Assembly (NCBI GenBank): GCA_030602665.1 | Contig: JAUVZE010000001.1 | Location: 1-29,023, forward strand | Length of the DNA stretch: 29,023 bases | Direction of reading: 5' to 3' | From: Dehalococcoidia bacterium | GTDB taxonomy: Bacteria > Chloroflexota > Dehalococcoidia > Dehalococcoidales > JAUVZE01 | Part shown: positions 11,775 to 27,437 of the stretch, piece by piece | How positions within the stretch are numbered: the stretch's first letter is position 1 | Layout of the letters: each line of letters starts with the position of its first letter | Made by a program: the position numbers and the translations under genes | Notes under the pieces: generated by a model | Databases searched by the model: none | Told to the model about the DNA's origin: nothing | The model's input: only the letters and a program-made list of their open reading frames with translations

Positions 11775-13331
11775 TTAAAGCCTAGACTTACACTTCATTA
11801 AAACTTTCTCTACCCGCTGAAGCAGGAGAGGAGGGGAAATTGGCTTTTCTACATAATCCTCGATGCCAGGGCTTGTCTTAGTTTCAAGCTCATAACGCCG
11901 GCGGCTGCTGTCCTCCCTCACTGCGCTTAATATCAGAATCGGTATCTTACTGCCACCAGCCCCTGCTTGCTCGTTAAGTCGCTTAACAACTTCAAATCCA
12001 TCCATCCTCGGCATAAGTAGGTCCAGAATCAGCAAGTCTGGTTTCTCCTCTTCTATTTTGGTTAAGGCCTCTTCTCCATCTTGGGCGGTAGATACCTGGT
12101 AACCTCGTGATTCTAGGACAAGGGTTATTACTTTTAGCATTTCGGGGTCATCATCAGCAACCAAGATTCTCTCTCCCCCCACCACCACCTTTTCCTCCTT
12201 TATTCTGCCTTTGGCTGCTACTGAGACCTTAGGTATAGTAAAGCTGAATTTGGTTCCTATTCCACTTTCAGGGCATGGACTTTCCACCCAAATTAGACCG
12301 CCATGTGCCTCAATAATCCTCTTTGCTATAGAAAGCCCTAAACCGACTCCTTCCGCATCTACCTTCACACCCCGATAAAAGTCATCAAATATTCTCGGCA
12401 GTTCTTCAGGAGAAATCCCTATCCCCGTGTCTGCGACATCTAACTGGATACAATCATCCATCTCCCGAGAGCTGATTGAGACCCTGCCACCAGCAGGAGT
12501 GAACTTAACGCCATCGCTCAACAAATTGGTAAACACCTGCCGCAAGCGCTTTGGTATTCCCAAGACTTGGGGCAATTTTGTAGACACATTGTTGTCTAAC
12601 TGTACTCCCTTTTGTTGAGCTACCCCCTGGACATCACCTATGGAACTTTCTATTACTTCAGACAGAGATAAGTTTTCAAAATCCAGTTCTCCAATTTCGA
12701 TATACGAAATGTCTAGGATATTGTCAATCATGCTGGTAAGGTCTGAAATTCGTTGCTTGCTTCCGGTTAGCAGCTCCTTCTGCCTGTCAGTAATATCTCC
12801 GCTATAGCCACTCACTATGACATCCAGACAACTTTGAACGGTAGCAAGAGGCGCTCTTAGATCGTGAGAACATACAGATAAAACATGAGCCAGTGTCTGT
12901 CTAGCATGTGACAACCTGCCAGACACTAAACTAACAAGCTCGTGCATCACCTTGCGGCATAAATCAGTGTCTTCATCACACAGATGGCGGAGAAGGTCTC
13001 CACTCAAGGCGAGTAATTTAGTATTTCCTGTAGATATTGCCGACAGGGTGAAAACTGGTGTCTCTGACAGTGCCGACCAGCCAAAAACCTGCCCCTCCGT
13101 TGCAATATCAATGGTTGCCTGTTTTCTCGTCCTTCGGCCAATACGAATCTCCATCTTAAGAGCGACTTGCCCCTCTGCGACGATGTAAAGATTGTGCGCG
13201 CTATCGCCCTCGCTGAAGATACGTGCCCCCGCCGCATAGGACTCCTCCCGGCATAACCCAGCTACTTTGTCTATCTGGGCGTCAGATAGTTTCCAAAACA
13301 TCTGGGAATTTTTGATAATCTCTCTCACCAT
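11775..13331 (-). CDS. Hybrid sensor histidine kinase: cNMP-like domain + HisKA + HATPase + receiver
   Basis: cNMP fold 'IFSEGDSAHNLYIVAEGQV', H-box 'SHDLRAPL', G1 'DTGIGI', G2 'GVGLGLS', receiver 'ILDLLMP'. The likely start is ATG 13331 or GTG 13334 rather than 13409, given the promoter position. Confidence 0.88.
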   Translation of the reverse strand: MVREIIKNSQMFWKLSDAQIDKVAGLCREESYAAGARIFSEGDSAHNLYIVAEGQVALKMEIRIGRRTRKQATIDIATEGQVFGWSALSETPVFTLSAISTGNTKLLALSGDLLRHLCDEDTDLCRKVMHELVSLVSGRLSHARQTLAHVLSVCSHDLRAPLATVQSCLDVIVSGYSGDITDRQKELLTGSKQRISDLTSMIDNILDISYIEIGELDFENLSLSEVIESSIGDVQGVAQQKGVQLDNNVSTKLPQVLGIPKRLRQVFTNLLSDGVKFTPAGGRVSISSREMDDCIQLDVADTGIGISPEELPRIFDDFYRGVKVDAEGVGLGLSIAKRIIEAHGGLIWVESPCPESGIGTKFSFTIPKVSVAAKGRIKEEKVVVGGERILVADDDPEMLKVITLVLESRGYQVSTAQDGEEALTKIEEEKPDLLILDLLMPRMDGFEVVKRLNEQAGAGGSKIPILILSAVREDSSRRRYELETKTSPGIEDYVEKPISPPLLLQRVEKVLMKCKSRL

Positions 13332-13413
13332 CACAAGCCTTATTCTTCTGACCCCTATTTCTAATCGTACCTGGATATGGCTAGGGCTATCGCCAAGCTC
13401 ATCTAACATTACT

Positions 13414-13568: not shown

Positions 13569-13597
13569 TTGAACTTTTCTAAATGGGGGATTATAAT
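13569..13597 (+). promoter_or_regulatory. Sigma70-type promoter of the hdr-met-mvh operon
   Basis: TTGAAC (13569-13574), 17 bp, TATAAT (13592-13597). Confidence 0.7.
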
Positions 13598-13645
13598 AAA
13601 TAAATGGGAAAGAGATAAAGTGACTTTTTATAAGTTATAAAGGGC

Positions 13646-13672
13646 AAATACACAGGGGACTGTGTATTTTTT
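13646..13672 (+). other. Perfect 10-bp inverted repeat AAATACACAG-ggga-CTGTGTATTT followed by a T run (operator or leader terminator)
   Basis: Seen directly, between the promoter and the hdrA1 start. Confidence 0.55.
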
Positions 13673-13700
13673 GTGTCTGTTCCATTAGGAGTTTGGAGAT

Positions 13701-14954
13701 TTGGCAAATGAAAGTGTTTTAGTTATCGGAGGGGGTGTAGCTGGGGTATCCTCAGCATTGAAGCTGGCTGAGAATGGTTTCCAGGTTTATCTAGTAGAAA
13801 GAGGGCCGATAATAGGGGGGCAGGCTGCGGTATTCTGTTGCAAGGCAACCGAAACATGTAGCCAATGCTCTGTCTGTCTGGTGCCTGAAAAGATACTGGA
13901 GGTGGCAGCTAATTCCCAGATTTCGCTTGTGGTCAATTCGGAAGTGGTGGGAATAAGCGGTGGAATTGGTGATTTCAAGGTTGACTTGCTTCAAAAGCCT
14001 GGATTCGTTGACCCTGAGAAGTGTATCGCCTGTGGAATCTGCACGGAACTTTGCCCCTGTGAACCTCAAAAGGGGATTTATTTGCCGTTTCCGGAAACAG
14101 CGCCTCGCACATATATAATCGACAAAAATCAATGCCTTCGCTTTAAAGGGGCCGAGTGTAATGTTTGCCAAGATAACTGTCCGGCGGGAGCTATCGACTT
14201 TGAACAGAAACCTAAAGAATTAGAGGTTAGTGCAGTAATTGTGGCCACCGGTTTCGAGGTCTTTGATGCTAGAGAAAAGGGATTGCTAGGCTATGGCAGG
14301 TATTCCAATGTACTCACTGGGCTTGACCTTGAGAGGATATTTGCCACTGGTGACTCGGTCACCTTGCCTTCAAGCGGGGAATGCCCCCGGAATATTGCCT
14401 TTATTCAGTGTGTTGGTTCACGGGACGAGTATATTGGTAATGGCTACTGCTCTCAGGTATGCTGCAAATACGCTATGAGATTCGCTAAGCTTCTGCAATA
14501 TCAGAATCCTGAGGCAAAGGTAACCATATTCTACATAGACCTTCAGACTGCAGGAAAAGGCTTCGGCGAATTCTACAAGGAATGTAAGGAAACCATCCGA
14601 TTTGTCCGAGGCATACCGGTGGAGGTTTGCAAGCTCTCCCCTAATGAGCTAGAGGTTAAATACGAAGACCTTACCAAAGGGAAAATTACCAAAGAGAGCT
14701 ACGACCTGGTAGTCCTATCGGTAGGCACCGCCCCCAGAAAAGACTCTTGGGATTTAGCCAGGGTTTTAGGCATCAACTTAGGGGATTATGGGTTTTTTGA
14801 CACTCAGGACACCCTAGACAGCAGCAGAACCAACGTCAATGGCATCTTCCTAGCTGGAACCTGTCAGGGGCCAAGGGACATACCTGAATCCATAGCTCAC
14901 GGTATTCAGGCAGCATCTAAGGTCATCCAGACCTTAACAGCGAGGGCTATTTAA
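13701..14954 (+). CDS. hdrA: HdrA/QmoA-like flavoprotein 1 (FAD domain with inserted 2x[4Fe-4S])
   Basis: GGGVAG, CIACGICTELCP, CLRFKGAECNVCQDNCP, 'IQCVGSRD...YCSQVCC', 'GTCQGPRDIP'. Confidence 0.88.
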   Translation: MANESVLVIGGGVAGVSSALKLAENGFQVYLVERGPIIGGQAAVFCCKATETCSQCSVCLVPEKILEVAANSQISLVVNSEVVGISGGIGDFKVDLLQKPGFVDPEKCIACGICTELCPCEPQKGIYLPFPETAPRTYIIDKNQCLRFKGAECNVCQDNCPAGAIDFEQKPKELEVSAVIVATGFEVFDAREKGLLGYGRYSNVLTGLDLERIFATGDSVTLPSSGECPRNIAFIQCVGSRDEYIGNGYCSQVCCKYAMRFAKLLQYQNPEAKVTIFYIDLQTAGKGFGEFYKECKETIRFVRGIPVEVCKLSPNELEVKYEDLTKGKITKESYDLVVLSVGTAPRKDSWDLARVLGINLGDYGFFDTQDTLDSSRTNVNGIFLAGTCQGPRDIPESIAHGIQAASKVIQTLTARAI

Positions 14955-16628
14955 GTGGATAATGGGTTAAAATTAGGCGTTTTCCTCTGTGATTGCGGTG
15001 GTACTTTATCAAAAGTCACCGATTTTTCGGCTATCAAAGCGAAACTGCAAAAACTCTCCGATGTTACCTATGTAGGCATAAGCCATGACCTGTGCCTTAA
15101 GAGAGCGCAGCAGGCAATGCAAAAGGACATCAAGGATAAAGGCATCAACAGGGTTGTTGTTGCTGCTTGCTCACCAGAGCTCCACGAAAATGATTTCATG
15201 AATGTAGTCCAGTCAGCCGGAGTGAATCGGCACCTTCTCTCTATGGCAAACATCAGGGAGCAATGCTTTTGGGCTCACCCAGACAAGGGCAAGGCTGCCA
15301 AAAAAGCAATGACCCAAATAGGGATGGCTATAAATAGAGCACGATTTTTGGAGCCTGTGGAACAGACACAAATTTCAGTAAATAAGGATGTTTTAGTAAT
15401 CGGTGGTGGTATAACGGGTATCCAGGCAGCTATTGAACTCTCTAACCTGAATTTAAAGACCACTCTTGTAGAAAAAGAAGCTACCTTGGGAGGCAAGCTA
15501 AATCGGTTTGCCAACCTCTATCCAGTCCAGGTTAGTCCGGAAGAGGTGCTAGCCACAAAACTAAAGCAGGTTGCCGAGAGTCAAAACATCTATGTTTTGA
15601 CCTCTGCTGAGCTTATAGATGTAAGTGGGGAAGTAGGAAACTTCTCAGCACGGATAAAGAGAGGGAATGGAGAATTTGTGCGAAATTTTGGGGCTATTAT
15701 CTTTGCCACTGGCTACACCACTCAATTCTCAAGCCAAATCTACGGGCTTGAACTTTCAAACAATATCATCACTCAATCTCAACTGGAAGAGATGCTTAAA
15801 TCTTCCAGTGAAGTTAAACAAATACCCAAGAGTGTATGCTTCGTCACAGATATCTCCGATGAACATTCCCGAGTTTCACCCCTTTCTGCTTTGAGGAATG
15901 CTTTAGGCATCAAGGAGAAGTTCAGAGGTGAAGTCTGCGTATTGTGCCAGAATTTGAAGGTTGATGGCGCTGGCCTAGAGAAGCTTTACCGTGATTGCCG
16001 AAATAAGGGGGTGCTCTTTATCAAGTTTGACAATTCACCGAGAATCTCGAAGCAGGACGGGAAAATAAAAATCGAGGTAGAGGATGTTTTAATGTCAGGG
16101 GAGCAGGTGACCCTACCTTGTGACCTTCTTGTGGTAGAAGAAACATCCGTGCCACCTCTGGATTCTAAGGTTCTAGGTTCTACTCTATATATGGGTCTTG
16201 ATGCACAAGGTTTCTATCAGGAGAACAACGTTCATCTTTACCCCACGGCTTCAAATAGAGAAGGGATTTTCTTCGCTGGAAATTGCCACGCAGATTTAGA
16301 CCTGATGCAGGCATTGACCGACGCAAGCAATGTGGCATTGAGTGCCTACCAGCTCCTAGCCCAGGGGAAGATAGCTGTTGAAGCAGAAAAGGTGATGGTC
16401 GACCCTAATAAGTGCCGCTTTTGCTTAACCTGTATCCGTGCCTGCCCTCATCATGCGATTCAAGAAGCTAAGGTGAACCACGAAAAAATGGTTGCCCAGA
16501 TTGCAGACCTTGCTTGCCAAGGCTGCGGTATTTGTGCTGTAGTTTGCCCGGCTAAAGCCATAAAACCCAAAGATTGGAGCGACGAGCAAATACTAGCTGA
16601 ATTTGAGCTATTGGGAGAATATGTATGA
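14955..16628 (+). CDS. hdrA: HdrA/QmoB-like flavoprotein 2 (N-terminal Fe-S domain, FAD domain, C-terminal 2x[4Fe-4S])
   Basis: 'GVFLCDCG...HDLC...AACS...IREQC', GGGITG, CRFCLTCIRACP, CQGCGICAVVCP. The FAD-proximal Cys motif is degenerate. Confidence 0.85.
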   Translation: MDNGLKLGVFLCDCGGTLSKVTDFSAIKAKLQKLSDVTYVGISHDLCLKRAQQAMQKDIKDKGINRVVVAACSPELHENDFMNVVQSAGVNRHLLSMANIREQCFWAHPDKGKAAKKAMTQIGMAINRARFLEPVEQTQISVNKDVLVIGGGITGIQAAIELSNLNLKTTLVEKEATLGGKLNRFANLYPVQVSPEEVLATKLKQVAESQNIYVLTSAELIDVSGEVGNFSARIKRGNGEFVRNFGAIIFATGYTTQFSSQIYGLELSNNIITQSQLEEMLKSSSEVKQIPKSVCFVTDISDEHSRVSPLSALRNALGIKEKFRGEVCVLCQNLKVDGAGLEKLYRDCRNKGVLFIKFDNSPRISKQDGKIKIEVEDVLMSGEQVTLPCDLLVVEETSVPPLDSKVLGSTLYMGLDAQGFYQENNVHLYPTASNREGIFFAGNCHADLDLMQALTDASNVALSAYQLLAQGKIAVEAEKVMVDPNKCRFCLTCIRACPHHAIQEAKVNHEKMVAQIADLACQGCGICAVVCPAKAIKPKDWSDEQILAEFELLGEYV

Positions 16629-17050
16629 AGGCAAAGGGAGCCTTTTTGCCTGATATTGTTGCTTTCTGTTGCGCCCAGTCTGCTTACCAGGCAGCAGATA
16701 CAGCCGGTTCTATGAGGATTACCTACCCGGAGAATATTAGGGTTATTCGGGTTCCCTGTGCCGGAAGAGTGGATGTGCTTCACATCTTGAGAGCCTTTGA
16801 AAAGGGCGCTGATGGGGTACTGGTCTTAGGCTGCCATGAGGAAGCCTGCCGCCACCTTTCTGGCAATATCAGGGCCAAGAATAGAGTTCAGAGGGTGAAT
16901 ACCCTTTTGCAAGAAGTGGGAATAGACGGCAAGCGTGTTGAGATGTTCACTCTGGCACCAAATCAGGGTTCCAGATTTGCCCGCATAGCCAATGAAGTGA
17001 ATGAGAGAATAAAAGAGCTAGGTCCAAGTCCTGTAAAATCAGGGGCCTAG
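16625..17050 (+). CDS. mvhD: MvhD/FlpD-family [2Fe-2S] protein 1
   Basis: 'FCCAQSAY', 'RVPCAGR', 'GADGVLVLGCHEEACRH'; ATGA overlap with hdrA2. Confidence 0.9.
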   Translation: MKAKGAFLPDIVAFCCAQSAYQAADTAGSMRITYPENIRVIRVPCAGRVDVLHILRAFEKGADGVLVLGCHEEACRHLSGNIRAKNRVQRVNTLLQEVGIDGKRVEMFTLAPNQGSRFARIANEVNERIKELGPSPVKSGA

Positions 17051-17064
17051 GGGGAGATGATGAA

Positions 17065-17721
17065 ATGATAGTAGCCGAAAGAAAGCCTCTAGAAGATATT
17101 AGAGAGATGATAGCTGGGTATAAGAAGATATTGATAGTGGGCTGTGGCACTTGTGTCACCATTTGTTGGGCTGGTGGAGAAAAAGAGGTGGCAGTGCTTT
17201 CCTCTCAGCTTAGGCTAGCTTCTAAGAAAGATGGTAATGAGCTTGAAATCTTGGAAGCTACTATTGAGAGGCAATGTGAGAAGGAATTGGTAGAGGCACT
17301 GAAAGACAAGGTGCAGCAAGTAGAGGCGGTTCTGTCCATGGGATGTGGGGCTGGAGTGCAGCCTATTGCCGAGATATTCCCAGATATGCCAGTCTACCCA
17401 GCACTAAATACCACGTTTGTGGGAATGCCTGAGGGGGAAGGAGTGTGGGTGGAAACTTGTAGAGCCTGTGGCGATTGTTTTCTGGATAAGACAGGAGGGA
17501 TTTGTCCTATTGTGAGGTGTGCCAAAGGGCTGCTCAATGGGCCTTGCGGTGGCACAAACAATGGCAAGTGCGAGATAGACTCAGAGAAGGACTGTGCTTG
17601 GACGCTCATTTATCGGAGACTTGAGCAACAGGGAAGGCTCGATGCGATGCGGAAGTATTATCCGCCGAGGAATTTCCAGGCAGTGATAAGGCCTGGGAAA
17701 GTTGAGACCTTACCAGCATAA
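17065..17721 (+). CDS. metV: Methylene-THF reductase small Fe-S/Zn subunit MetV
   Basis: 'GCGTCVTIC', 'GCGAG', 'CRACGDC', 'CPIVRCAKGLLNGPCGG...CE...CAW'; directly upstream of metF. Confidence 0.92.
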   Translation: MIVAERKPLEDIREMIAGYKKILIVGCGTCVTICWAGGEKEVAVLSSQLRLASKKDGNELEILEATIERQCEKELVEALKDKVQQVEAVLSMGCGAGVQPIAEIFPDMPVYPALNTTFVGMPEGEGVWVETCRACGDCFLDKTGGICPIVRCAKGLLNGPCGGTNNGKCEIDSEKDCAWTLIYRRLEQQGRLDAMRKYYPPRNFQAVIRPGKVETLPA

Positions 17722-17735
17722 AAGGGGTGTGAGCC

Positions 17736-18626
17736 ATGGCTAAAGCATTTAAAGAAACCCTCAACTCAGGAAAATTCGTAGTGACGAGCGAGATTGGACC
17801 TCCAAAAGGGACCAATCTTGAGAAATTGATTCACCACATTGACCTTCTTAAGGACAAGGTGGATGCCCTGAATGTGACTGACAACCAAAGCTCAGTGATG
17901 CGCTTCCCTTCATTAGGAACTTGTCTACTCATTAAAGAGCGTGGCGGGGAGCCGATTCTGCAGATGACCTGTCGTGACCGCAACCGTATGGCACTTGAGG
18001 CAGACCTTCTCTTTGCTTACACCAGAGGAATTAAAAATGTTCTTTGCCTTACTGGCGATTTTATTACTATAGGTGACCATAAAGAGGCCAGAGCCGTCTT
18101 TGACCTTGATTCACTTCAGTTACTTCATATGGTACGTATCCTGCAATCAGGCAAAGACCTAGGAGGAAACGAACTAGACGGAGCGGTAGAGTTTTGTGCT
18201 GGTGCTACTGTTACCCCAGAGGCAAACCCTATCGAGCCTCAGCTCATCAAATTTGAAAAGAAGGTTCAGGCAGGAGCCGAATTTTTCCAGACGCAAGCAA
18301 TTTACGACCTTGATAACTTCAAGAAGTTTATGAAATATGTCCGTGGGCTAGACAAAAATATCAAAATTTTAGCTGGCATAGTGCTTTTGGCCTCAGCAGG
18401 AATGGCAAAATATATGAATGAAAATACCCCCGGTGTTTTCGTCCCGCAAGTTTTGATTGATGAGATGGCAACTGCTGAGAAAGGCAAGCGTGTTCAAAAG
18501 GGTATTGAGATTGCCGGCCGACTCATCAGGCAAATAAAAGAAGAAGCTATCTGTGACGGAGTCCATATCATGGCTATTGGCAGAGAAGAGGTAGTTCCTG
18601 ATATTTTAGCGGCAGGTGGACTTTAG
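17736..18626 (+). CDS. metF: Methylene-THF reductase MetF (canonical residues intact)
   Basis: 'TSEIGPPKG' (catalytic Glu), 'QMTCRDRNR', 'LTGD', 'FFQTQAIYD', 'GVHIM'. Confidence 0.93.
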   Translation: MAKAFKETLNSGKFVVTSEIGPPKGTNLEKLIHHIDLLKDKVDALNVTDNQSSVMRFPSLGTCLLIKERGGEPILQMTCRDRNRMALEADLLFAYTRGIKNVLCLTGDFITIGDHKEARAVFDLDSLQLLHMVRILQSGKDLGGNELDGAVEFCAGATVTPEANPIEPQLIKFEKKVQAGAEFFQTQAIYDLDNFKKFMKYVRGLDKNIKILAGIVLLASAGMAKYMNENTPGVFVPQVLIDEMATAEKGKRVQKGIEIAGRLIRQIKEEAICDGVHIMAIGREEVVPDILAAGGL

Positions 18627-18673
18627 CCAGCGGAAGTAAAGTATTCAAAACTTAGGAGCCAGAGGAGGCGAAG

Positions 18674-19168
18674 ATGGGAACTATAGTGTTAAGTGAGCTA
18701 GACCCCAAATTTAAGTATGAAGTCGCTGAGCAACCGGGGGGTGAGAATATTAAGGTCTGCTTCTCTTGTGGGCTTTGCACTGCTGGCTGCCCAGTTTCAG
18801 AAATCGATGAGAACTACAATCCAAGAAAGATTATTCACATGGTGTTACTTGGGATGAGAGAGCAGGTTCTCTCTTCCGATTTCATCTGGCTCTGCTCTCT
18901 GTGTTATACCTGTTATGCCCATTGCCCTCAAAATGTCAAATTCACCGATGTCATGCGCGCCTTGAGAACTATGGCAGTGAAAGAGGGTTATGTTCATCCC
19001 TCCTTTCCTGACCGGATAAAGGAAATTGATAATCTTTCTCAAAAATTGCGGCAGCAAATGGCACTGTCCATTTTGAGGAGAAAATCAGAGGATGCTAGTA
19101 TAAACCCAGCAGAGTTGCTGGCTAAAGCTTCACGGGAAGTAGAGAGAGCTAAGTCTCCCGTTTCTTAA
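18674..19168 (+). CDS. hdrC: HdrC-like 2x[4Fe-4S] protein
   Basis: CFSCGLCTAGCP, 'NPRKIIHMVLLG', 'IWLCSLCYTCYAHCP'. Confidence 0.9.
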   Translation: MGTIVLSELDPKFKYEVAEQPGGENIKVCFSCGLCTAGCPVSEIDENYNPRKIIHMVLLGMREQVLSSDFIWLCSLCYTCYAHCPQNVKFTDVMRALRTMAVKEGYVHPSFPDRIKEIDNLSQKLRQQMALSILRRKSEDASINPAELLAKASREVERAKSPVS

Positions 19169-19191
19169 ACTGAAGGGAGCAAGGAAAGTTC

Positions 19192-22100
19192 ATGAAATCA
19201 GGACCATCAGAAAATAAGCAAGTAGGGGCGGTACTGGTAGTGGGTGGTGGGATAGGAGGAGTACAGGCAGCACTTGATTTAGCTGAGTCTGGTTACTATG
19301 TTTACCTGGTAGAGAAATCTCCTGCCATTGGCGGGGTTATGGCTCAACTTGACAAGACCTTCCCTACCAACGATTGCTCTATGTGCATCCTTTCGCCCAA
19401 GCTTGTAGAGTGCGGAAGGCATCTCAACATTGAGCTAATAACTAATGCTGAGCTAAAGGAAGTCTCAGGAGAGCCGGGACAGTTTAAGGTTAAGATTCTG
19501 ACAAAATCACGATATATCGATACTCAGAAATGCACCGGCTGTGGTGAATGCGTTCAAGTCTGTCCCGTGGAGGTCGATAGTGAATTTGACGTGGGGTTAA
19601 CCAAGAGAAAGGCAATCTTTATACCCTATCCTCAGGCAGTCCCCAGCATTTTCACCGTTGACAAGAAGGAAAGACCGCCGTGCGTGAGAACTTGCCCGGC
19701 ACATGTAAATGTCCAGGGATACATAGCTCTTACCTCCAAGGGGAAGTACAAAGAGGCTCTAGAACTGGTCAAGGAGAACCTCCCCCTGCCAGGGGTATTG
19801 GGGAGGATCTGTCCCCACCCCTGCGAATCCAAATGCAATAGAGCGCCTCTTGATGAGCCTCTGGCTATTGCAAGCATCAAGCGGTTCATAGCGGACCAAG
19901 CTAAGGATGAGCTGCTCCCTCAGGTAAAGACGGAGAGAAAAGATGAGAGGGTTGCCATTGTCGGTTCTGGCCCTGCAGGGCTTACCGCCGCTTACCAACT
20001 GGCAAAGGAAGGATATGGGGTAACTGTGTTTGAGGCCTTGCCCGTTGTTGGTGGGATGCTATATGTCGGAATACCTGAATATCGTCTTCCTAAGGGGGTA
20101 TTGGAGCAAGAGGTTGAAGCTATCAAGCACATGGGCATCGAGATAAAAACCAACACCCCTATAGGCAAAGACTTAACCTTGGATACTCTCTTCACTCAAG
20201 GGTATAAAGCGATGTTTATTGCAGTTGGTGCTCACAAAAGCTTGGAGCTTGGTATCCCTGGAGAGCATGCTGCTGGTGTAGTTCAAGGTGTGGCATTCTT
20301 AAGGGAAATGAATTTGGGGAAGGAAGTAAGACTTGGGAGGAAGGTTGCCATAATTGGTGGCGGTAACGTAGCCATTGATGCAGCCAGAAGTGCACTTCGC
20401 TTAGGCGCTCAAAAGGTTTTCATCCTCTATCGCCGCTCTAGAATGGAGATGCCAGCAAGCGATGAGGAAATAGAGGCGGCTTTAACCGAAGGGGTTGAAA
20501 TACAGTATTTGGTTGCCCCAACAGAGGTTCTGGTTAAGGAGGTTAAGGATGGAAAGGTGGTGGGCATAAGGTGTATACAGATGGAGCTAGGGGCACCTGA
20601 TGCCACAGGGAGGAGGAGGCCAATACCCATCCCGGGCTCCGAGTTTGATATAGAAGCAGACATGATTATCCCTGCTATCGGTCAAGCTCCCGACCTTTCC
20701 TTCCTCGAAGGCTCAGGGGTAACACTCAGCAGAAGGGGCTTGATAGATGTCAACCCAATTACCCTTGCCACCAGTCGACCCGGTGTTTTCGCCGGGGGAG
20801 ATGCCCAAACTGGACCTGGGATAGCTATTGAAGCGGTGGCAGCAGGAAACAGGGCAGCAGTTTCCATCATAAGATACCTCAAAGGCGAGGATTTGAGAGA
20901 GGGGAGAGAAATAAAGGAAGAGGAGATTAGACCTCTCGGTTTGAGCGAACTCCCCGTGGGAGAGCCGAGGAAGCCCCGGGTACAAATGCCAACTATCAAG
21001 CCAGAAAGAAGGCAAAACAGCTTTGATGAGGTTGAGCTAGGCTTCACTGAGGAGACGGCTCTTCAGGAAGCAAAGAGGTGCCTTAACTGTGGGATCTGCT
21101 CCGAGTGTCTCCAGTGTGTCGCTGCCTGCAAAGCCGAAGCCATCGACCACGAGATGCAAGACAAGATGATAGAGATAAAGGTGGGGGCGGTGATAGTTGC
21201 TGGTGGCTACGAACTTTTTGACCCAAGCGTCCAATATGAACTCGGCTATACCAGGTCCCCCAACGTGGTAACCAGCCTAGAATTTGAACGTATATTAAGC
21301 GCCTCCGGTCCATTCCAGGGAACCTTGTTAAGACCTTCGGATTTAACCCCACCGCAAAAGATGGCCTTTATTCAATGTGTTGGCTCCAGGGATGCCCAAA
21401 ACCCCTATTGCTCTTCAGTATGCTGTACCTATGCTATTAAAGAGGCCATTATCGCCAAAGAGCATAGCACTGTTCCTCTGGATGTGACTATTTTCTTTAT
21501 GGATATGAGAACCTATGGTAAGGATTTTGATAGATATTATGACCGTGCCAAAGAGGAGAGTCAGGTTAAGTTCGTCAGGGCAAAGGTACATGACATTGAA
21601 GAGAAGGATGGCACTGGAGACTTAGTAGTCAAATTTGCCACAGAGGATGGGGGGATAAGGGCAGAGGATTTTAATTTGGTTGTCCTTTCTGTCGGCTTCC
21701 AAGCCTCCCCAGGGATGGTCGACCTAGCCAAGAAACTGGGGGTTCAGCTAAATCCCTACGGTTTCTGCCAAACCGGAAGTTTTTCCCCAGTTGAAACCTC
21801 AAAACCAGGCATATTCGTCTGCGGCGCCTTCAGTGGACCCAAAGACATCCCTGAGACAGTTATGCAGGCTAGCGGAGCAGCGGGAAGCGCTTCGGCTTTA
21901 CTTGCTCCTGCCCGCAAGACATTAGTCAAGGAGAAGGTATATCCTCCGGAAAAGGATGTCGCAGGGGAAGAGCCAAGGATTGGTATCTTCGTTTGCCACT
22001 GCGGAATCAACATCGGCGGGGTGGTAAATGTTCCTGAGGTGAGGGAATATGCAGCCACCTTGCCCAATGTCGTCTTCACCGATGCTAACCTCTATACCTG

Positions 22101-23658
22101 CTCTCAGGATACGCAGGAAAAAATAAAGGCAATGATTGAAGAACACAACCTCAACCGGGTGATAGTAGCCTCATGCTCTCCCAGAACTCATGAGCCTTTG
22201 TTTCAGGAGACTATTAAAGAGGCAGGCTTGAATAGATACCTATTTGAGATGACTAATATCCGTGACCAGTGCTCTTGGGTTCATATGCATGAGCCGGAGA
22301 AAGCTACCGAGAAGGCAAAAGACCTAGTGAGGATGGCAGTAGCCAAAGCGAGGCTGATTGAACCACTGAGACAATTGTCCCTCAGTATCAACCACTCAGC
22401 CTTGGTCATAGGTGGTGGAATATCAGGGATGGTGAGTGCCCTGACTTTAGCAGAGCAGGGATTTAAAGTGCACTTAGTGGAGAGGAATAGTGAGCTTGGT
22501 GGGATAGCAGGGAGGATACATTACACCTTAGAGGGTGGAAATGTTCAAGCTTATTTAGCTGGTCTTATTGAAAAGGTTACTAACCATGACTTAATTGAAG
22601 TATATACTAATGCTTATATTGTGGATGCCTCTGGTTATGTGGGAAATTTCACCACAGAGTTAATGAGGTATCGTGGGCCATATGTTGAGAGAATTGAACA
22701 CGGGGTAGTTATCATAGCCACAGGAGGTCAAGAATATAGACCTGATGAATATCTTTATGGGAGAGACCCCAGAGTGCTCACCGCTCTTGAGCTAGAGGAA
22801 GAAATAGCTAAGGGCAATCCAGACATCACTGATTGCAACAACTTGGTGATGATTCAATGTGTAGGCTCTCGCCATGACCAAAGACCCTACTGTAGCAAGG
22901 TATGTTGTAGCCAGGCGATAAAGAATGCTTTAAAGCTAAAAGAGATAAAGCCTGAGATGGAAATCTATATACTTTATAGAGATATGAGGACCTATGGGTT
23001 TAAAGAAGATTATTATCAGGAGGCTCGTCGCCGAGGGGTGATATTCCTCCGCTACGATTTGGATAAGAAACCTGAAGTCAGAGCGGTGAGGGAAAATGGC
23101 CAATATCTGCTGAAAGTAAAAGTTTACGACCCTGTAATAGGTGAACAAGTCCTTATCAATGCGGATATACTGGCTTTAGGTGTGGCTACAATCCCTTCAG
23201 CCGAAATTAGAGAATTGGCTCAGTTTTATAAGGTGCCTCTAAATGAGGACGGCTTCTTTGTAGAAGCCCATGTAAAGCTCCGCCCGGTTGATTTCGCTAC
23301 TGAGGGTGCTTTTGTATGCGGTCTAGCTCATGCGCCAAAGTCTATAGAAGAGAGCATTGCGCAGGCTAAAGCAGCCGCCTCACGGGCTACTACCATACTG
23401 GTTAAGGATACGATAACTGCTGAAGGCATAGTCTGCTCGGTAAATGAAGACATTTGCAGCGGCTGCGGTATCTGCGAGGTGCTTTGCCCTTATTTAGCTA
23501 TTGCCGTTGATAAAACAGAGAGGGTAGCCAAGGTTAATGAAGCACTGTGTAAAGGCTGTGGGACTTGCTGCGCTGCTTGCCCTTCCGGCGCTGCTCAACA
23601 ACGAGGCTTTAGAAGGGACCAGATATCTTCCATGATTAGTGCTGCTTTGGGGGTATAG
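19192..23658 (+). CDS. hdrL: HdrL-type large flavoprotein: two HdrA modules with an inserted GltD/NfnB-like NAD(P)H module
   Basis: 'LDKTFPTNDCSMC', GltD-like 'CVRTCP...GRICPHPCESKC...GSGPAG...GIPEYRLP...GGGNVA...YRR', two 'QCVGSR..YCSxVCC' motifs, 'VCHCG...REQC-like' domain, and C-terminal CSGCGICEVLCP and CKGCGTCCAACP. Confidence 0.9.
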   Translation: MKSGPSENKQVGAVLVVGGGIGGVQAALDLAESGYYVYLVEKSPAIGGVMAQLDKTFPTNDCSMCILSPKLVECGRHLNIELITNAELKEVSGEPGQFKVKILTKSRYIDTQKCTGCGECVQVCPVEVDSEFDVGLTKRKAIFIPYPQAVPSIFTVDKKERPPCVRTCPAHVNVQGYIALTSKGKYKEALELVKENLPLPGVLGRICPHPCESKCNRAPLDEPLAIASIKRFIADQAKDELLPQVKTERKDERVAIVGSGPAGLTAAYQLAKEGYGVTVFEALPVVGGMLYVGIPEYRLPKGVLEQEVEAIKHMGIEIKTNTPIGKDLTLDTLFTQGYKAMFIAVGAHKSLELGIPGEHAAGVVQGVAFLREMNLGKEVRLGRKVAIIGGGNVAIDAARSALRLGAQKVFILYRRSRMEMPASDEEIEAALTEGVEIQYLVAPTEVLVKEVKDGKVVGIRCIQMELGAPDATGRRRPIPIPGSEFDIEADMIIPAIGQAPDLSFLEGSGVTLSRRGLIDVNPITLATSRPGVFAGGDAQTGPGIAIEAVAAGNRAAVSIIRYLKGEDLREGREIKEEEIRPLGLSELPVGEPRKPRVQMPTIKPERRQNSFDEVELGFTEETALQEAKRCLNCGICSECLQCVAACKAEAIDHEMQDKMIEIKVGAVIVAGGYELFDPSVQYELGYTRSPNVVTSLEFERILSASGPFQGTLLRPSDLTPPQKMAFIQCVGSRDAQNPYCSSVCCTYAIKEAIIAKEHSTVPLDVTIFFMDMRTYGKDFDRYYDRAKEESQVKFVRAKVHDIEEKDGTGDLVVKFATEDGGIRAEDFNLVVLSVGFQASPGMVDLAKKLGVQLNPYGFCQTGSFSPVETSKPGIFVCGAFSGPKDIPETVMQASGAAGSASALLAPARKTLVKEKVYPPEKDVAGEEPRIGIFVCHCGINIGGVVNVPEVREYAATLPNVVFTDANLYTCSQDTQEKIKAMIEEHNLNRVIVASCSPRTHEPLFQETIKEAGLNRYLFEMTNIRDQCSWVHMHEPEKATEKAKDLVRMAVAKARLIEPLRQLSLSINHSALVIGGGISGMVSALTLAEQGFKVHLVERNSELGGIAGRIHYTLEGGNVQAYLAGLIEKVTNHDLIEVYTNAYIVDASGYVGNFTTELMRYRGPYVERIEHGVVIIATGGQEYRPDEYLYGRDPRVLTALELEEEIAKGNPDITDCNNLVMIQCVGSRHDQRPYCSKVCCSQAIKNALKLKEIKPEMEIYILYRDMRTYGFKEDYYQEARRRGVIFLRYDLDKKPEVRAVRENGQYLLKVKVYDPVIGEQVLINADILALGVATIPSAEIRELAQFYKVPLNEDGFFVEAHVKLRPVDFATEGAFVCGLAHAPKSIEESIAQAKAAASRATTILVKDTITAEGIVCSVNEDICSGCGICEVLCPYLAIAVDKTERVAKVNEALCKGCGTCCAACPSGAAQQRGFRRDQISSMISAALGV

Positions 23659-23659
23659 C

Positions 23660-24088
23660 ATGGATGGGTTTGAGCCCAAAATCATAGGCTTTTGCTGCAA
23701 CTGGTGTGCTTATGCTGGTGCTGACTTGGCTGGGATAGGTCGGATTCAGTATCCCCCTAACCTGAGGATGATAAGGGTGATGTGTTCCGGAACAATTGAG
23801 CCAGTATATGTCTTGGAAGCTTTTCAGAAGGGAGCCGATGGGGTCTTCATCGGAGGTTGTCACCCGGGGGATTGCCACTACCAAGCTGGAAATTATAAGA
23901 CCATGAGGAAGGTTATCTTGATGAAAAGACTGCTCTCTCAACTGGGGATAAGCCCTAAGAGGTTGAGACTGGAGTGGGTATCGGCAGCAGAGGGACAACG
24001 ATTCGCTCAAGTGGTTACCGACTTTATTGCCGAGGTAAAAGAACTGGGACCGAATCCATTGAATCAAGAGGTTGCTCAACATGGATAA
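23660..24088 (+). CDS. mvhD: MvhD [2Fe-2S] protein 2 (hydrogenase delta subunit)
   Basis: 'GFCCNWCAYAGAD', 'RVMCSG', 'GCHPGDCHY', 'EWVSAAEG'. Start set at ATG 23660, just after the hdrL stop. Confidence 0.93.
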   Translation: MDGFEPKIIGFCCNWCAYAGADLAGIGRIQYPPNLRMIRVMCSGTIEPVYVLEAFQKGADGVFIGGCHPGDCHYQAGNYKTMRKVILMKRLLSQLGISPKRLRLEWVSAAEGQRFAQVVTDFIAEVKELGPNPLNQEVAQHG

Positions 24089-25073
24089 AAAGATAAAGCT
24101 AGCTATTGGGCTGGGTGCCACATGTGCTGGATGTGACATCGCCATATTAGACCTTAATGAAAAGATTCTTGATTTGGCTTCCTTAGCTGATATTGTTTTC
24201 TGGCCAACGGCGATGGATTTCAAGCTCTCAGAATTGGAAAAGATAGAGAAAAACGAGATTGATATAAGTCTTTATCATGGTACTGTAAGAACCTCCGAGC
24301 ATGAACATATTGTTCACCTTTTAAGAGAGAGGTCCAAGGTTATAATTGCTTTCGGCTCGTGCTCTTGTTTTGGAGGCATTCCTGGACTTTGCAATCTCAC
24401 CAGTAAGGAAGAGATATTTGAAACTGCGTATAAAGAAACCCCGTCTACGGTAAATCCAGAATTTATTACCCCTAAAACTAAGGTTTCCCAAGATGGTCAT
24501 GACCTTACCTTACCGGAACTCTATAATGATGGAAGGGCATTGTCCCAAATTGCAGATGTGGATTACTACCTGCCAGGGTGTCCTCCAGCAGTGGAGCTGA
24601 TTGAGAGACTGATACCCATAATAAGCAACTTTCTGGAAACAGGCGAACTCCCACCTAAAGGCACAGTGATTGCCTCCGATAAGACGCTCTGTGACGAATG
24701 CCCTCTCACCAAAGAGAACAAAATGGTCTCAAGGATTTTTAGACCCCATGAGATTATCCCTGACCCTAAAAGGTGCTTGCTGGAACAAGGGATATTATGT
24801 ATGGGGCCTGCCACCAGAGGGGGCTGTGGTTCCAGATGCATCAATGTTGGTATGCCCTGCAGAGGGTGTATGGGACCTACAGCCGAGGTCAGAGACCAAG
24901 GGGCTAAAATGGTCTCGGCTATAGCTTCAATCCTAGGGGCAGAGAATGAGAAGGATTTGTCTGAAGATGATGTAGAGAAACTAATGGACCAGATTAAGGA
25001 CCCCGTGGGCACCTTCTATAGATTCAGTTTGCCAGTAGCCTTAGTCAATAAAAGAATAAAGGAAGGTAGTTAA
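24081..25073 (+). CDS. mvhG: Group 3c [NiFe]-hydrogenase small subunit
   Basis: 'CAGCDIAILDL', 'FGSCSCFGGIPGLCN', 'YLPGCPP', 'LCDEC...CLLEQGILCMGPATRGGC...C...MPCRGCMG'. Confidence 0.92.
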   Translation: MDKKIKLAIGLGATCAGCDIAILDLNEKILDLASLADIVFWPTAMDFKLSELEKIEKNEIDISLYHGTVRTSEHEHIVHLLRERSKVIIAFGSCSCFGGIPGLCNLTSKEEIFETAYKETPSTVNPEFITPKTKVSQDGHDLTLPELYNDGRALSQIADVDYYLPGCPPAVELIERLIPIISNFLETGELPPKGTVIASDKTLCDECPLTKENKMVSRIFRPHEIIPDPKRCLLEQGILCMGPATRGGCGSRCINVGMPCRGCMGPTAEVRDQGAKMVSAIASILGAENEKDLSEDDVEKLMDQIKDPVGTFYRFSLPVALVNKRIKEGS

Positions 25074-25076
25074 AGA

Positions 25077-26558
25077 ATGGCACAAGCCCAACAGCCTAAA
25101 TCAAAGCGGATTACTATTGAGCCCATAACCAGATTGGAGGGTGAGGCCAAGATAGATATATTCCTAAACGACGAGGGGAATGTGGATAATGCCTACTTTC
25201 AAGTAGTTGAGTTGCGAGGTTTTGAGAGGTTTTGCCAAGGGAGGCCGGTAGAGGAGATGCCTCGGATAACTACCAGAATCTGTGGTGTTTGCCCTGGTGC
25301 TCACCACATGGCTTCCTCTAAGGCAGTAGACGCTGTCTTTAATGTAGACCCACCAGAACCAGCAAAAAAACTAAGGGAACTCTTCTATTGCGCCCATATG
25401 CTCCATAGCCACATTGCCCACTTTTATGCCTTAGCCGGACCGGATTTTGTCCTAGGACCAGATGCCGACCCTTCAAAGAGGAATATCCTTGGCGTTATAG
25501 AAGCAGTCGGCTTAGATACCGGGAAGAAGGTTATTGCTGCTCGGGGCTATGCCCAGAGAATCCAAGAGATGATTGGTGGCAAAGCTACCCATCCAGTTTG
25601 TGGTCTCCCTGGAGGAATGTCTAAAGCGATAACAGAGGAAGAACGAAAAGAAATAGAAGAGATGGCTAAATCTTTGATAGACTTTGCCAAGTTTTCCCTA
25701 CAGTTAGTAGATGACTTAATTCTAAAGAACAAAGTCTATATGGATTTGATTACTGGCGACATTTACCACCATGAAACATATTATATGGGTATGGTGGATG
25801 AGAATAACAAGGTGAACTTCTATGATGGAGATATAAAGGTAGTAGACCAGAAGGGCAAGGAATATGCCAAGTTTAAGCCAAAGGACTACTTAAACTACAT
25901 TGAGGAGCATGTCGAACCTTGGTCATATCTCAAGTTCCCTTATCTAAAGGGTATAGGATGGAAGGGATTGGTTGATGGCAAGGATAGCGGCATTTACAGG
26001 GTCAACTCCTTGGCTCGGTTAAATGTAGCCGATGGCATGGCTACCCCCTTAGCCCAAGAGGCGTATGATAGGATGTTTGACATACTAGGGGACAAGCCAT
26101 CGCACGCCACACTAGCATTTAACTGGGCACGGATTGTGGAGATTATGTATGCTTCAGAGAGGCTGCTGGAATTAGCCACAGATAAGGACATTACCAGTAA
26201 AGATATTAGAACTATCCCCAAAGAGAAGCCAGGTGAAGGACTTGGCTGTGTGGAAGCACCCCGGGGAACATTATTCCATCATTATTGGTCAGATGAAGAG
26301 GGAATCATTAAGAAAGTAAACCTTATTGTGGCTACTGGGCAGAATAATGGACCCATGTGCATGTCGGTAAAGAAGGCAGCCCAGAGCCTCATCAAAAACT
26401 GGAAGGTTGACCAGGGACTCCTGAACATGGTGGAGATGGCATTCAGGGCTTATGACCCCTGCCTGGCTTGCGCTACCCATACATTACCTGGACATATGCC
26501 TTTGGAGGTCATTATCCGTGACCCTAAGGGCAAGATAGTGGAACAACTAAGGCAATAG
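25077..26558 (+). CDS. mvhA: Group 3c [NiFe]-hydrogenase large subunit
   Basis: 'IEPITRLEGE', L1 'RICGVCPGAH', 'VEAPRGTLFHHY', L2 'RAYDPCLACATH' followed by a cleavable C-terminal tail. Confidence 0.95.
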   Translation: MAQAQQPKSKRITIEPITRLEGEAKIDIFLNDEGNVDNAYFQVVELRGFERFCQGRPVEEMPRITTRICGVCPGAHHMASSKAVDAVFNVDPPEPAKKLRELFYCAHMLHSHIAHFYALAGPDFVLGPDADPSKRNILGVIEAVGLDTGKKVIAARGYAQRIQEMIGGKATHPVCGLPGGMSKAITEEERKEIEEMAKSLIDFAKFSLQLVDDLILKNKVYMDLITGDIYHHETYYMGMVDENNKVNFYDGDIKVVDQKGKEYAKFKPKDYLNYIEEHVEPWSYLKFPYLKGIGWKGLVDGKDSGIYRVNSLARLNVADGMATPLAQEAYDRMFDILGDKPSHATLAFNWARIVEIMYASERLLELATDKDITSKDIRTIPKEKPGEGLGCVEAPRGTLFHHYWSDEEGIIKKVNLIVATGQNNGPMCMSVKKAAQSLIKNWKVDQGLLNMVEMAFRAYDPCLACATHTLPGHMPLEVIIRDPKGKIVEQLRQ

Positions 26559-26564
26559 GGCATG

Positions 26565-27437
26565 TTAAAATCCGGCAGCATCCAAGACTGCTCCCACTCT
26601 GGACTCCCAACCCATAGCCATGATATGGATTCCCTGGCACATATCTTTCATTTCATTAATCAAGCGAGCGGCTATTTCAACGCTTTTTTGAACTTTGTCT
26701 TCAGCTTCCTCCATCTCGTCAAGAAGCTCGTCAGGGACATAGATGCCGGCAATGTTCCTGTTCATAAATCTTGCCATGGATGCCGACTTAAGTAACATTA
26801 TACCAACCAACACTGGCACGCTGAGCTTTTTAGCCTCCTGCATGAATGTTTCAAACTTCTTGGGTTCGTAAATAGCCCGAGTTTGAAAAAACTGGGCGCC
26901 AGCTTTAGCCTTTTTCTCCATTTTGATAAGCTCTGGTTCTACAGGCTCAGCCCCTGGCGTAACACAAGCCCCGAGGAAGAAGTGAGGAGCACCCCTCAGC
27001 TCCTTACCAGCCAAGTCTTTGCCTTGCTCCAATCCTCGGGCAGCTTGGAGTAAGGAAGCAGAATCATCAAGGTCAAAGACAGGCTTAGCCTGTTGTCGGT
27101 GGTCACCCGAATCAATATCGTCACCGGTGAGGCAAAGGATATTCTGAATGCCAAGAACATAAGCGTTAAGTAAGTCAGATTGTAAGGCGATTCGGTTACG
27201 GTCACGACAGGTCATGTGCAAGACCGGCTCTATGCCTTTTTGTTTAAGCAGACAGCAACCAGCTAATGAGCCCAATCTCATCACGGCGCTTTGCTGGTCG
27301 CTGACATTAACTGCATCAACCTTGCCCCGTAATAGTTCAACATTATTGAGAAATTCAGTGACATCCACGCCCTTAGCCGGGTCAATCTGAACAGTGACGG
27401 CGAACTTACCACTTTCAAGCACTTCACGTAGACTCAT
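26565..27437 (-). CDS. MetF-fold flavoprotein paralog with substituted folate-binding residues
   Basis: Aligns with the first MetF over its full length ('HMTCRDRNR', 'LTGD', 'GIHIM') but has 'TVQIDP' and 'FFQTRAIY'. Confidence 0.85.
   Translation of the reverse strand: MSLREVLESGKFAVTVQIDPAKGVDVTEFLNNVELLRGKVDAVNVSDQQSAVMRLGSLAGCCLLKQKGIEPVLHMTCRDRNRIALQSDLLNAYVLGIQNILCLTGDDIDSGDHRQQAKPVFDLDDSASLLQAARGLEQGKDLAGKELRGAPHFFLGACVTPGAEPVEPELIKMEKKAKAGAQFFQTRAIYEPKKFETFMQEAKKLSVPVLVGIMLLKSASMARFMNRNIAGIYVPDELLDEMEEAEDKVQKSVEIAARLINEMKDMCQGIHIMAMGWESRVGAVLDAAGF

Follow-up and report, generated by a model that had tools for sequence, protein, structure and literature searches.

We analysed a 29,023-nucleotide window of DNA, contig C11 of a marine-sediment Dehalococcoidales metagenome-assembled genome (MAG; 890 kb in 101 contigs, 56% complete), in which ten genes on the plus strand join a MetVF-type methylene-tetrahydrofolate (methylene-THF) reductase to proteins of the heterodisulfide reductase (Hdr) type and a [NiFe] hydrogenase. 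Pfam and NCBIfam profile searches of the window proteins gave the order HdrA1, HdrA2, MvhD1, MetV, MetF, HdrC-like, HdrL, MvhD2, MvhG and MvhA, encoded by ten open reading frames (ORFs) that run head to tail from 13701 to 26558, none with an internal stop. Successive ORFs are spaced by 0, −4, +14, +14, +47, +23, −20, −17 and +3 bp, which confirms the single strand and the overlaps or gaps below 50 bp described for these ten genes in an initial annotation of this DNA; a sequence scan found no convincing internal terminator in the short gaps. Other genomes and tens of metagenome contigs repeat this gene order, which places the arrangement far beyond chance.

The reductase genes metV (17065–17721, 218 aa; PF12225, 2.9e-37) and metF (17736–18626, 296 aa; PF02219, 6.5e-43) lie side by side across a 14-bp gap and encode, respectively, the iron–sulfur subunit, with 13 cysteines, and the catalytic flavoprotein, with the motifs TSEIGPP and FFQTQAIY. 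Directly upstream, ending 14 bp before metV, is mvhD1 (16625–17050, 141 aa; PF02662, 9e-49), which encodes a [2Fe-2S] connector of the FlpD family. Behind metF come the gene for a two-[4Fe-4S] ferredoxin resembling HdrC (18674–19168, 164 aa; TIGR03290, 9e-27) and hdrL (19192–23658, 1488 aa), whose HdrA-type product contains an internal GltD/NfnB module. The second FlpD-family gene, mvhD2 (23639–24088, 149 aa; PF02662, 3.5e-56), overlaps both of its neighbours, including the last 20 bp of hdrL, and its product, which keeps the same five cysteines as MvhD1, is predicted to connect the hydrogenase with HdrL. The operon closes with mvhG (24072–25073, 333 aa; PF01058; VhuG, 4e-70), for a [NiFe]-hydrogenase small subunit with 14 cysteines, and mvhA (25077–26558, 493 aa; VhuA, 2e-130), for a group-3c-type large subunit.

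Alignment to solved structures (8rvv, 8rvu and 5odc) revealed that the HdrA-type proteins are built as complementary halves. HdrA1 (13701–14954, 417 aa; identified from Pfam and NCBIfam profiles) comprises an HdrA-type FAD domain with an inserted two-cluster ferredoxin domain, aligns to residues 140–557 of the solved HdrA chain (8rvv, 5odc) and keeps a CxxC (C56/C59) to which the Cys197 equivalent belongs; the N-terminal domain and the C-terminal ferredoxin domain are both missing. HdrA2 (14955–16628, 557 aa) has a Cys-bearing N-terminal domain, an FAD domain and a C-terminal 2x[4Fe-4S] ferredoxin domain, with neither the inserted ferredoxin domain nor a Cys197 equivalent. Judged by this alignment, HdrA1 and HdrA2 are complementary partners in the pattern of an asymmetric heterodimer. 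The same complementarity of N-terminal domain and Cys197 holds within HdrL, whose N-half resembles HdrA1, with a CSMC motif kept, and whose C-half resembles HdrA2.

The ferredoxin domain of the HdrL N-half is interrupted at about residues 156–667 (bases 19657–21192) by an FAD/NAD(P)H module of the NfnB/GltD type that has two [4Fe-4S] clusters. This module reaches 359 bits with Thermotoga NfnB (4ylf_B), 321 bits with 5jca_L and 487 bits with 9bov_A, and HdrL matches PRK12771 at 587 bits, with Fer4_20 and Pyr_redox_2 across residues 161–552; these profile and structure-sequence matches bear out the NAD(P)H module that the initial annotation had placed in the operon. Unlike in the NfnAB transhydrogenase, NfnB is here an inserted domain of HdrL rather than a separate subunit, and no NfnA-type (PyrK-like FAD/[2Fe-2S]) domains were found in the ten operon proteins, the rest of the genome not having been searched for them. 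Chadwick et al. (PMC9012536) describe tandem or fused HdrA complementary heterodimers, Moorella HdrA among them, and NfnB insertion in HdrA paralogues of anaerobic methanotrophic archaea (ANME), and HdrL followed by MvhD was defined in Desulfobacterium autotrophicum (PMC2702500). At the level of sequence, HdrA1/HdrA2 and HdrL follow these published heterodimer and NfnB-insertion patterns exactly. In one Desulfatiglandaceae MAG (L013, 4315–8844), the HdrL of an HdrL-MvhD-MetVF cluster carries an in-frame TGA at the second CSMC cysteine (DCAM*VISPK), the Cys197-equivalent position, which probably encodes selenocysteine.

To place the operon in its lineage we compared it with 201 genomes of the order Dehalococcoidales and scanned metagenomes with an alignment of HdrC-like orthologues; the scan returned at least 80 contigs, which we annotated by BLAST against the window proteins. 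Full-length HdrC-like orthologues (62–90% identity) occur in five other genomes, one of the same family and four of a second Dehalococcoidales family, and identity spans 62–98% across the other genomes and metagenome contigs together. The four second-family genomes share the order HdrA1-HdrA2-MvhD-MetV-MetF-HdrC-HdrL-MvhD at 44–75% identity. The full upstream half of this eight-gene core is visible in 29 of the 80 metagenome contigs listed, with HdrA2 fused to MvhD1 (642–707 aa) in five or six of the 29. Genes for MvhG and MvhA directly follow MvhD2 in at least 16 contigs, 13 of these 16 carrying MetVF; by eye the 16 make up about eight sequence groups, of which seven have MetVF (HdrC identity 62–98%). 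This search by gene order supports the view of the HdrB-less MetVF-Hdr cluster as a conserved unit.

Some relatives depart from this order. A variant with an extra HdrA fusion (~1010–1017 aa and lacking an NfnB insert) together with a long MvhD (251–252 aa) between hdrC and hdrL, and hence with three HdrA modules in one operon, was seen in L127 (G090:C76, a same-family genome), L142, L145, L147, L153, L155, L170, L175 and L181. In a third family, genome G061 carries hdrC-hdrB-hdrL-mvhD-metV-metF, HdrB included, a form that looks, from its gene order, like an intermediate to the Moorella type.

The HdrC-like protein differs from its canonical counterpart. It has two CxxCxxCxxxCP motifs with all eight cysteines kept (C29/32/35/39 and C74/77/80/84), matches the HdrC of solved Hdr complexes only over residues 8–110 and belongs to a distinct orthologue group; compared with canonical HdrC, it is without an insertion of nine residues, and a short charged tail replaces the long C-terminal segment. 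That C-terminal segment reportedly embraces HdrB in the M. wolfei structure. No CCG domain (PF02754; HdrB/HdrD) is present in the ten operon proteins or elsewhere on contig C11, and no HdrB lies between metF and hdrL in any of the 80 related metagenome contigs listed.

A check of the host genome for hdrB elsewhere, proposed with the initial annotation, did find it. Eight PF02754 matches fall in four loci, on contigs C79, C85, C91 and C98: a canonical hdrC-hdrB-hdrA-mvhD-mvhG operon that reaches the contig end (C79, 7398–12242), hdrC-hdrB at the end of C85, an mvhD, hdrCB-fusion and hdrA series on C91 (3–3904), where HdrA is split after 198 aa into a 198-aa protein and a 610-aa HdrA-MvhD fusion, and an HdrD-like protein on C98. 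Because the hdrB genes adjoin or are fused to hdrC, each HdrB has its own HdrC. The reported absence of hdrB thus holds for the operon and contig C11 and fails for the genome, and 'HdrB-less' describes the operon, not the organism.

The hydrogenase is of the Mvh type. MvhA retains intact L1 (RICGVCPGAH) and L2 (DPCLACATH) motifs followed by a 25-residue C-terminal extension, and its best family is VhuA at 435 bits, which is below that model's strict 800-bit cut-off. Its nearest homologues (68–73% identity) reside in mvhDGA operons, some of them behind hdrCBA, and group-3c-type MvhA is common in the order (94 of the 201 genomes). The intact motifs, the best family and the operon context of the homologues uphold the initial assignment to group 3c. 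MvhG and MvhD are encoded next to MvhA, and HdrA next to MvhD, as in the MvhAGD-HdrABC complex.

We next asked whether the hydrogenase shares the history of the cluster, using a maximum-likelihood tree of 16 MvhA sequences, seven of them cluster-linked. Six of the seven, the window's MvhA among them, form one clade with full support (100 in the Shimodaira–Hasegawa-like approximate likelihood ratio test, SH-aLRT). In the seventh, from L144, HdrL is 93% identical to that of the window versus 64% for MvhA; this MvhA groups with an unlinked mvhDGA set of genome G090, and the approximately unbiased (AU) test rejects a single clade (p ~1e-136). Its grouping with an unrelated mvhDGA marks it as a replacement, so the hydrogenase has been passed down with the cluster for a long time and replaced at least once, a history that speaks for selection on a functional link and against mere chance proximity. 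A one-off juxtaposition in the window genome is rejected by the metagenome contigs and the MvhA tree. Since other copies of the cluster lack mvhGA, the hydrogenase is best described as an optional module, and the link is not universal. A hydrogenase–methylene-THF reductase juxtaposition of a different type was seen in L135 (G064:C11, 1047–4186), where a gene for a 504-aa [NiFe] large-subunit-like protein, 40% identical to MvhA, directly precedes genes for MetV-like (38%) and MetF2-like (57%) proteins, with an mvhDGA set a few kilobases downstream.

Variant architectures bear on how MetVF may be wired. In all the Hdr- or NfnB-linked MetVF architectures observed, MetV comes directly after an MvhD gene or domain, and MetVF accompanies an NfnB-type module in three other architectures: NuoF-NfnB fusion, HdrL-MvhD and NfnB-ferredoxin-MvhD fusion. 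The NuoF-NfnB fusion with MetVF is the commonest form in Desulfobacterota and Dehalococcoidia, and HdrL-MvhD-MetVF units without HdrC or hydrogenase occur in Desulfobacterota MAGs (L011–L013 and L017). Clusters of HdrC-like, HdrA-fusion, MvhDGA and HdrL genes without MetVF were found in L214–216, two of which (L214 and L215) have canonical hdrCB just upstream. Together, the HdrL-MvhD-MetVF units without HdrC and the HdrC-like clusters without MetVF suggest that MvhD, rather than HdrC, plugs into MetV, a role that would fall here to MvhD1; the architectural classes behind this suggestion are few and not mutually independent. Among the examples examined, the HdrC-like protein without HdrB occurs only where at least two HdrA modules are present, and it may link HdrL with the second HdrA module, not directly with MetV. 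The initial proposal that MetVF replaces HdrB as the high-potential terminus therefore survives as one possible wiring, with the variants lacking HdrC or MetVF pointing to an MvhD–MetV plug instead.

A minimal arrangement of NADPH module, MvhD and MetVF without any HdrA was seen in a Syntrophobacteraceae MAG (L021, 70–3627), where a 607-aa NfnB-like/ferredoxin/MvhD-like fusion lies directly upstream of MetV-MetF. The 365-aa 'MetV' of the same locus had appeared to be an MvhD-MetV fusion; this proved to be an overlap in ORF calling, the actual fusion being the NfnB-ferredoxin-MvhD protein. Similarly, the ~1040-aa proteins upstream of most MetVF loci were considered as HdrL and rejected, since they match the NfnB part only and are NuoF-NfnB fusions.

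On balance we favour, with somewhat more confidence than doubt, a reading in which the operon encodes a variant of the Moorella-type HdrCBA-MvhD-MetVF enzyme, a flavin-based bifurcating or confurcating methylene-THF reductase system that would couple H2 and/or NADPH, ferredoxin and methylene-/methyl-THF. For the direction, stoichiometry and exact wiring of electron flow, we infer the following scheme. Electrons from H2 would enter via MvhAG and then MvhD2, and/or electrons from NADPH via the NfnB module, and the pair would be split at an HdrA-type flavin in HdrL. The high-potential electron would pass through iron–sulfur clusters to MetV and on to MetF, reducing methylene-THF (~−200 mV), by way of the HdrC-like protein and then either MetV directly or the HdrA1/HdrA2-MvhD1 module, and the low-potential electron would reduce ferredoxin. 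Run in reverse, the system would use methyl-THF from methyl donors together with reduced ferredoxin to form H2 and/or NADPH, which would relieve the uphill oxidation of methyl-THF during growth on methylated compounds; this direction would suit an MttB-rich genome living at low H2.

With the methanogen MvhAGD-HdrABC complex (5odc, 8rvu, 8rvv) the operon shares the type of MvhA, MvhG and MvhD, homologous HdrA FAD and ferredoxin domains and the HdrC core, and the same logic, in which the electrons of H2 are divided between ferredoxin and a high-potential acceptor, would be expected here too. In contrast to that complex, the heterodisulfide site (HdrB) is absent, leaving methylene-THF/MetVF as the one high-potential couple in evidence; a homodimeric HdrA gives way to an asymmetric heterodimer or fusion; and an NADPH module is added. 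A further structure, 7bkb, is that of the formate-dehydrogenase-linked Hdr relative. HdrCBA-MvhD-MetVF systems have been described in Moorella thermoacetica (Mock et al. 2014, as cited in PMC5736913 and PMC9012536) and Sporomusa ovata (Kremp et al. 2022, PMC9430772), the second acceptor being described there as unknown, and Moorella-type clusters are also reported from marine Chloroflexi (PMC5736913). As in the Moorella and Sporomusa enzyme, MetV-MetF lies directly behind MvhD, two complementary HdrA halves are present, HdrC has two [4Fe-4S] motifs and the host is a Wood–Ljungdahl organism. The differences are that the operon lacks HdrB and has a truncated HdrC with a charged C-terminus, that it encodes two HdrA modules (split HdrA1/HdrA2 and fused HdrL with its NfnB-type module) and two MvhD proteins, and that a cytoplasmic group-3c [NiFe] hydrogenase belongs to the same operon.

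HdrL also has relatives of its own. Like HdrL-MvhD of Desulfobacterium autotrophicum and Syntrophobacter fumaroxidans (PMC2702500, PMC5947623) and ANME-1 HdrA9–11 (PMC9012536), it is a large HdrA with a GltD/NfnB module in the ferredoxin domain, and as in those systems, where mvhD is said always to follow, an mvhD gene comes next; unlike them, it belongs to a MetVF operon that also holds genes for a second HdrA pair and for an HdrC without HdrB, and mvhGA. The nearest published idea is a genomic proposal for type I Acetothermia of an H2-dependent bifurcating MetVF-HdrA-MvhD with MvhAG and HdrBC (Colman et al. 2022, PMC9586279). There too a group 3c hydrogenase feeds an Hdr-linked MetVF and metVF, hdrA and mvhD are colocalized; however, hdrBC and mvhAG lie together elsewhere in that genome, with HdrB present, whereas here mvhGA is in the metVF operon, which lacks HdrB and takes in an NfnB module. 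The open-access literature searched held no description of an HdrB-less MetVF operon with two HdrA modules, an NfnB module and linked mvhGA. The view that no complex of this composition has been characterized is in keeping with that search, H2-coupled Hdr-linked MetVF itself having already been proposed for Acetothermia. The component parts are of known kinds and their combination is new.

Several observations weigh against the favoured reading. H2 (−414 mV) and NADPH (−320 mV) both lie below the methylene-/methyl-THF couple, so that methylene-THF reduction is downhill from either donor and bifurcation is not thermodynamically required. In the two second-family genomes whose sequence extends past MvhD2, mvhGA follows in neither, and in at least five metagenome contigs the cluster stops at MvhD2, the sequence beyond it (over 1.2 kb) having no mvhGA; absence of the hydrogenase from an otherwise identical sister-family cluster implies that the core works without it. 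The HdrL-MvhD-MetVF units without HdrC and the L214–216 clusters without MetVF indicate that the two halves of the operon can stand alone. Three metatranscriptomes of samples that contain this DNA yielded no contigs, although these are tiny libraries with no bearing on expression or co-transcription.

Searches of the window's own assembly (56% complete) found neither acetyl-CoA synthase (ACS; PF03598) nor Fhs (PF01268). ACS is present in four of four cluster-bearing sister-family genomes and in both of the more complete own-family members searched, and Fhs in all five genomes searched, three of them own-family; given the incomplete assembly and these relatives, we do not read the miss as absence. 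In genome G002 the cluster is directly followed by cooC, fhs and RACo. On this gene content, the lineage uses the Wood–Ljungdahl pathway.

The strongest rival, which we hold to be unlikely while still giving it real weight, divides the operon into two enzymes: an HdrA1/HdrA2-MvhD1-MetVF reductase, and an HdrC-like-HdrL-MvhD2-MvhAG hydrogenase acting on H2, NADP+ and ferredoxin like Nfn- or Hyd-type bifurcating enzymes, linked only by soluble NADPH or ferredoxin, with co-transcription merely coordinating supply and demand. The free-standing halves noted above are what this model would predict; hydrogenase modules of the order attach to many different Hdr modules, and insertion of an HdrA fusion and MvhD between hdrC and hdrL is tolerated (L142, L145, L175, L181 and G090). 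Yet in contigs that reach upstream of the HdrC-like gene, metF alone is found there among the 80 listed, L214–216 excepted, and the hydrogenase-less eight-gene core keeps HdrC-HdrL-MvhD2 beside MetVF, so that this half is retained without H2. HdrC in solved Hdr complexes is, moreover, an internal wire to the high-potential site and not a terminal carrier, and a free-standing HdrC-HdrL would thus have no acceptor.

A bolder form of the coupled-reductase reading would have all ten proteins assemble into one supercomplex with up to three potential bifurcating flavins (the HdrA-type FAD of HdrL, the NfnB-type FAD and the HdrA1/HdrA2 FAD) that interconverts H2, NADPH, ferredoxin and methylene-/methyl-THF, the HdrC-like protein standing in place of HdrB's partner to wire the HdrA modules together. 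We regard this as speculative and rather doubtful. If it were true, energy-starved subsurface Dehalococcoidia could drive methyl-THF oxidation, or conserve the energy of methylene-THF reduction, at very low H2.

A simple non-bifurcating chain, in which H2 or NADPH reduces methylene-THF downhill and the HdrA-type flavins act as wires or as NAD(P)H/ferredoxin inputs with no energy coupling, appears improbable. It would accord with textbook potentials, H2 and NADPH both being more negative than the methylene-/methyl-THF couple, with the fact that most MetVF loci in related phyla have only a NuoF-NfnB fusion as partner, and with Clostridium ljungdahlii, whose MetVF is reported to work with reduced ferredoxin and no bifurcation (PMC8515935, PMC8760232). 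It leaves unexplained why four HdrA-type FAD domains, with bifurcating-type complementarity of cluster ligands, are kept over wide divergence; four such domains are costly for a mere wire, especially in genomes of 1–2 Mb, and a low-H2, energy-limited sediment habitat favours coupling. Very improbable, finally, is recruitment of HdrB in trans from C79 or C85 to reduce a disulfide alongside methylene-THF, as suspected for Moorella: the genome's at least four CCG-domain proteins, the hdrB-containing G061 cluster and the hdrCB genes directly upstream of the HdrC-like gene in L214 and L215 speak for it, but every hdrB in the genome adjoins or is fused to its own canonical hdrC, the HdrC-like group lacks the canonical insertion and C-terminal segment, and no MetVF-linked contig among the 80 listed has an HdrB in the cluster.

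Methylene-THF reduction is the most exergonic step of the Wood–Ljungdahl pathway, and the electron donor of MetVF and energy conservation at this step are open questions for acetogens; for the Moorella/Sporomusa enzyme, a second carrier is reported still to be missing (PMC9430772, PMC8760232). The operon is a natural and conserved case of MetVF genes standing beside those for the probable electron donors, namely a group 3c hydrogenase and an NADPH module of the NfnB type; with these donors encoded alongside and the enigmatic HdrB absent, the possible reactions are narrowed and there is a concrete enzyme to assay. The nearest named relative is an 'uncultured Dehalococcoidales bacterium' MAG (MetV 94% identical). 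Metagenomes of marine sediment, the subsurface, hydrothermal vents and cold seeps (at least eight studies) contain near-identical DNA, and the window DNA reaches ~34x coverage in one marine sediment metagenome. Given this wide distribution and the small, MttB-rich genomes of these Dehalococcoidia, the cluster may be central to the handling of H2 and methylated compounds by abundant subsurface Chloroflexota.

Upstream of hdrA1, a consensus scan located a promoter-like site on the plus strand at 13569–13597 (TTGAAC-17 nt-TATAAT), both hexamers of which are kept in contig L146 (HdrA1 83% identical) while the flanks diverge. Because the scan gave no more hits than in shuffled sequence, the single promoter of the initial annotation is plausible only, supported by this conserved site and weakened by a second, internal candidate before hdrC at 18577–18605. 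The 5' leader (13598–13700, plus strand) folds stably (minimum free energy −28.6 kcal/mol, z = −4.5 versus shuffles) and holds a terminator-like hairpin at 13646–13669, followed by a T-run; the hairpin is kept in L141 and L146, and the leader may be an attenuator or other riboregulator; an Rfam search of the leader gave only sub-threshold chance matches and no family. Divergent from the operon, on the minus strand, lies a gene for a hybrid sensor histidine kinase with a cyclic-nucleotide-binding domain (11775–13409), which may be a conserved regulator of the operon. In genome G002 a kinase with cyclic-nucleotide-binding and HATPase_c domains lies directly upstream of the cluster (L125, 14755–15912), in the same direction as the cluster.

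Downstream, separated from mvhA by 6 bp and convergent with it, a second MTHFR-family paralogue, MetF2, is encoded on the minus strand (26565–27437; PF02219, 1.6e-35), and the clusters of L141, L142 and L144 have the same downstream neighbour. A MetF2-like gene (32–38% identity) is found directly upstream of NuoF-NfnB fusion-MetV-MetF in about half of the Desulfobacterota genomes sampled (L018, L020, L022, L033 and others), so the pairing of MetVF with MetF2 recurs across phyla.

Behind MetF2, 1.2 kb past the operon, an MttB-superfamily methyltransferase gene on the minus strand (27727–29022; PF06253, 4e-63) remains open to the end of the window and is a possible source of methyl groups. It is one of five MttB-family matches in the window genome; one same-family genome has 12. 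MttB paralogues of the window's own family are many and lack TAG codons. Sister-family MttB genes with one or two in-frame TAG codons were seen at G131:C3:34920-36332, G174:C58, G118:C17/C6/C53 and G002:C17, and these may, from their reading frames, encode pyrrolysine-type trimethylamine methyltransferases. In G131, one TAG-containing mttB lies ~6 kb upstream of the eight-gene cluster.

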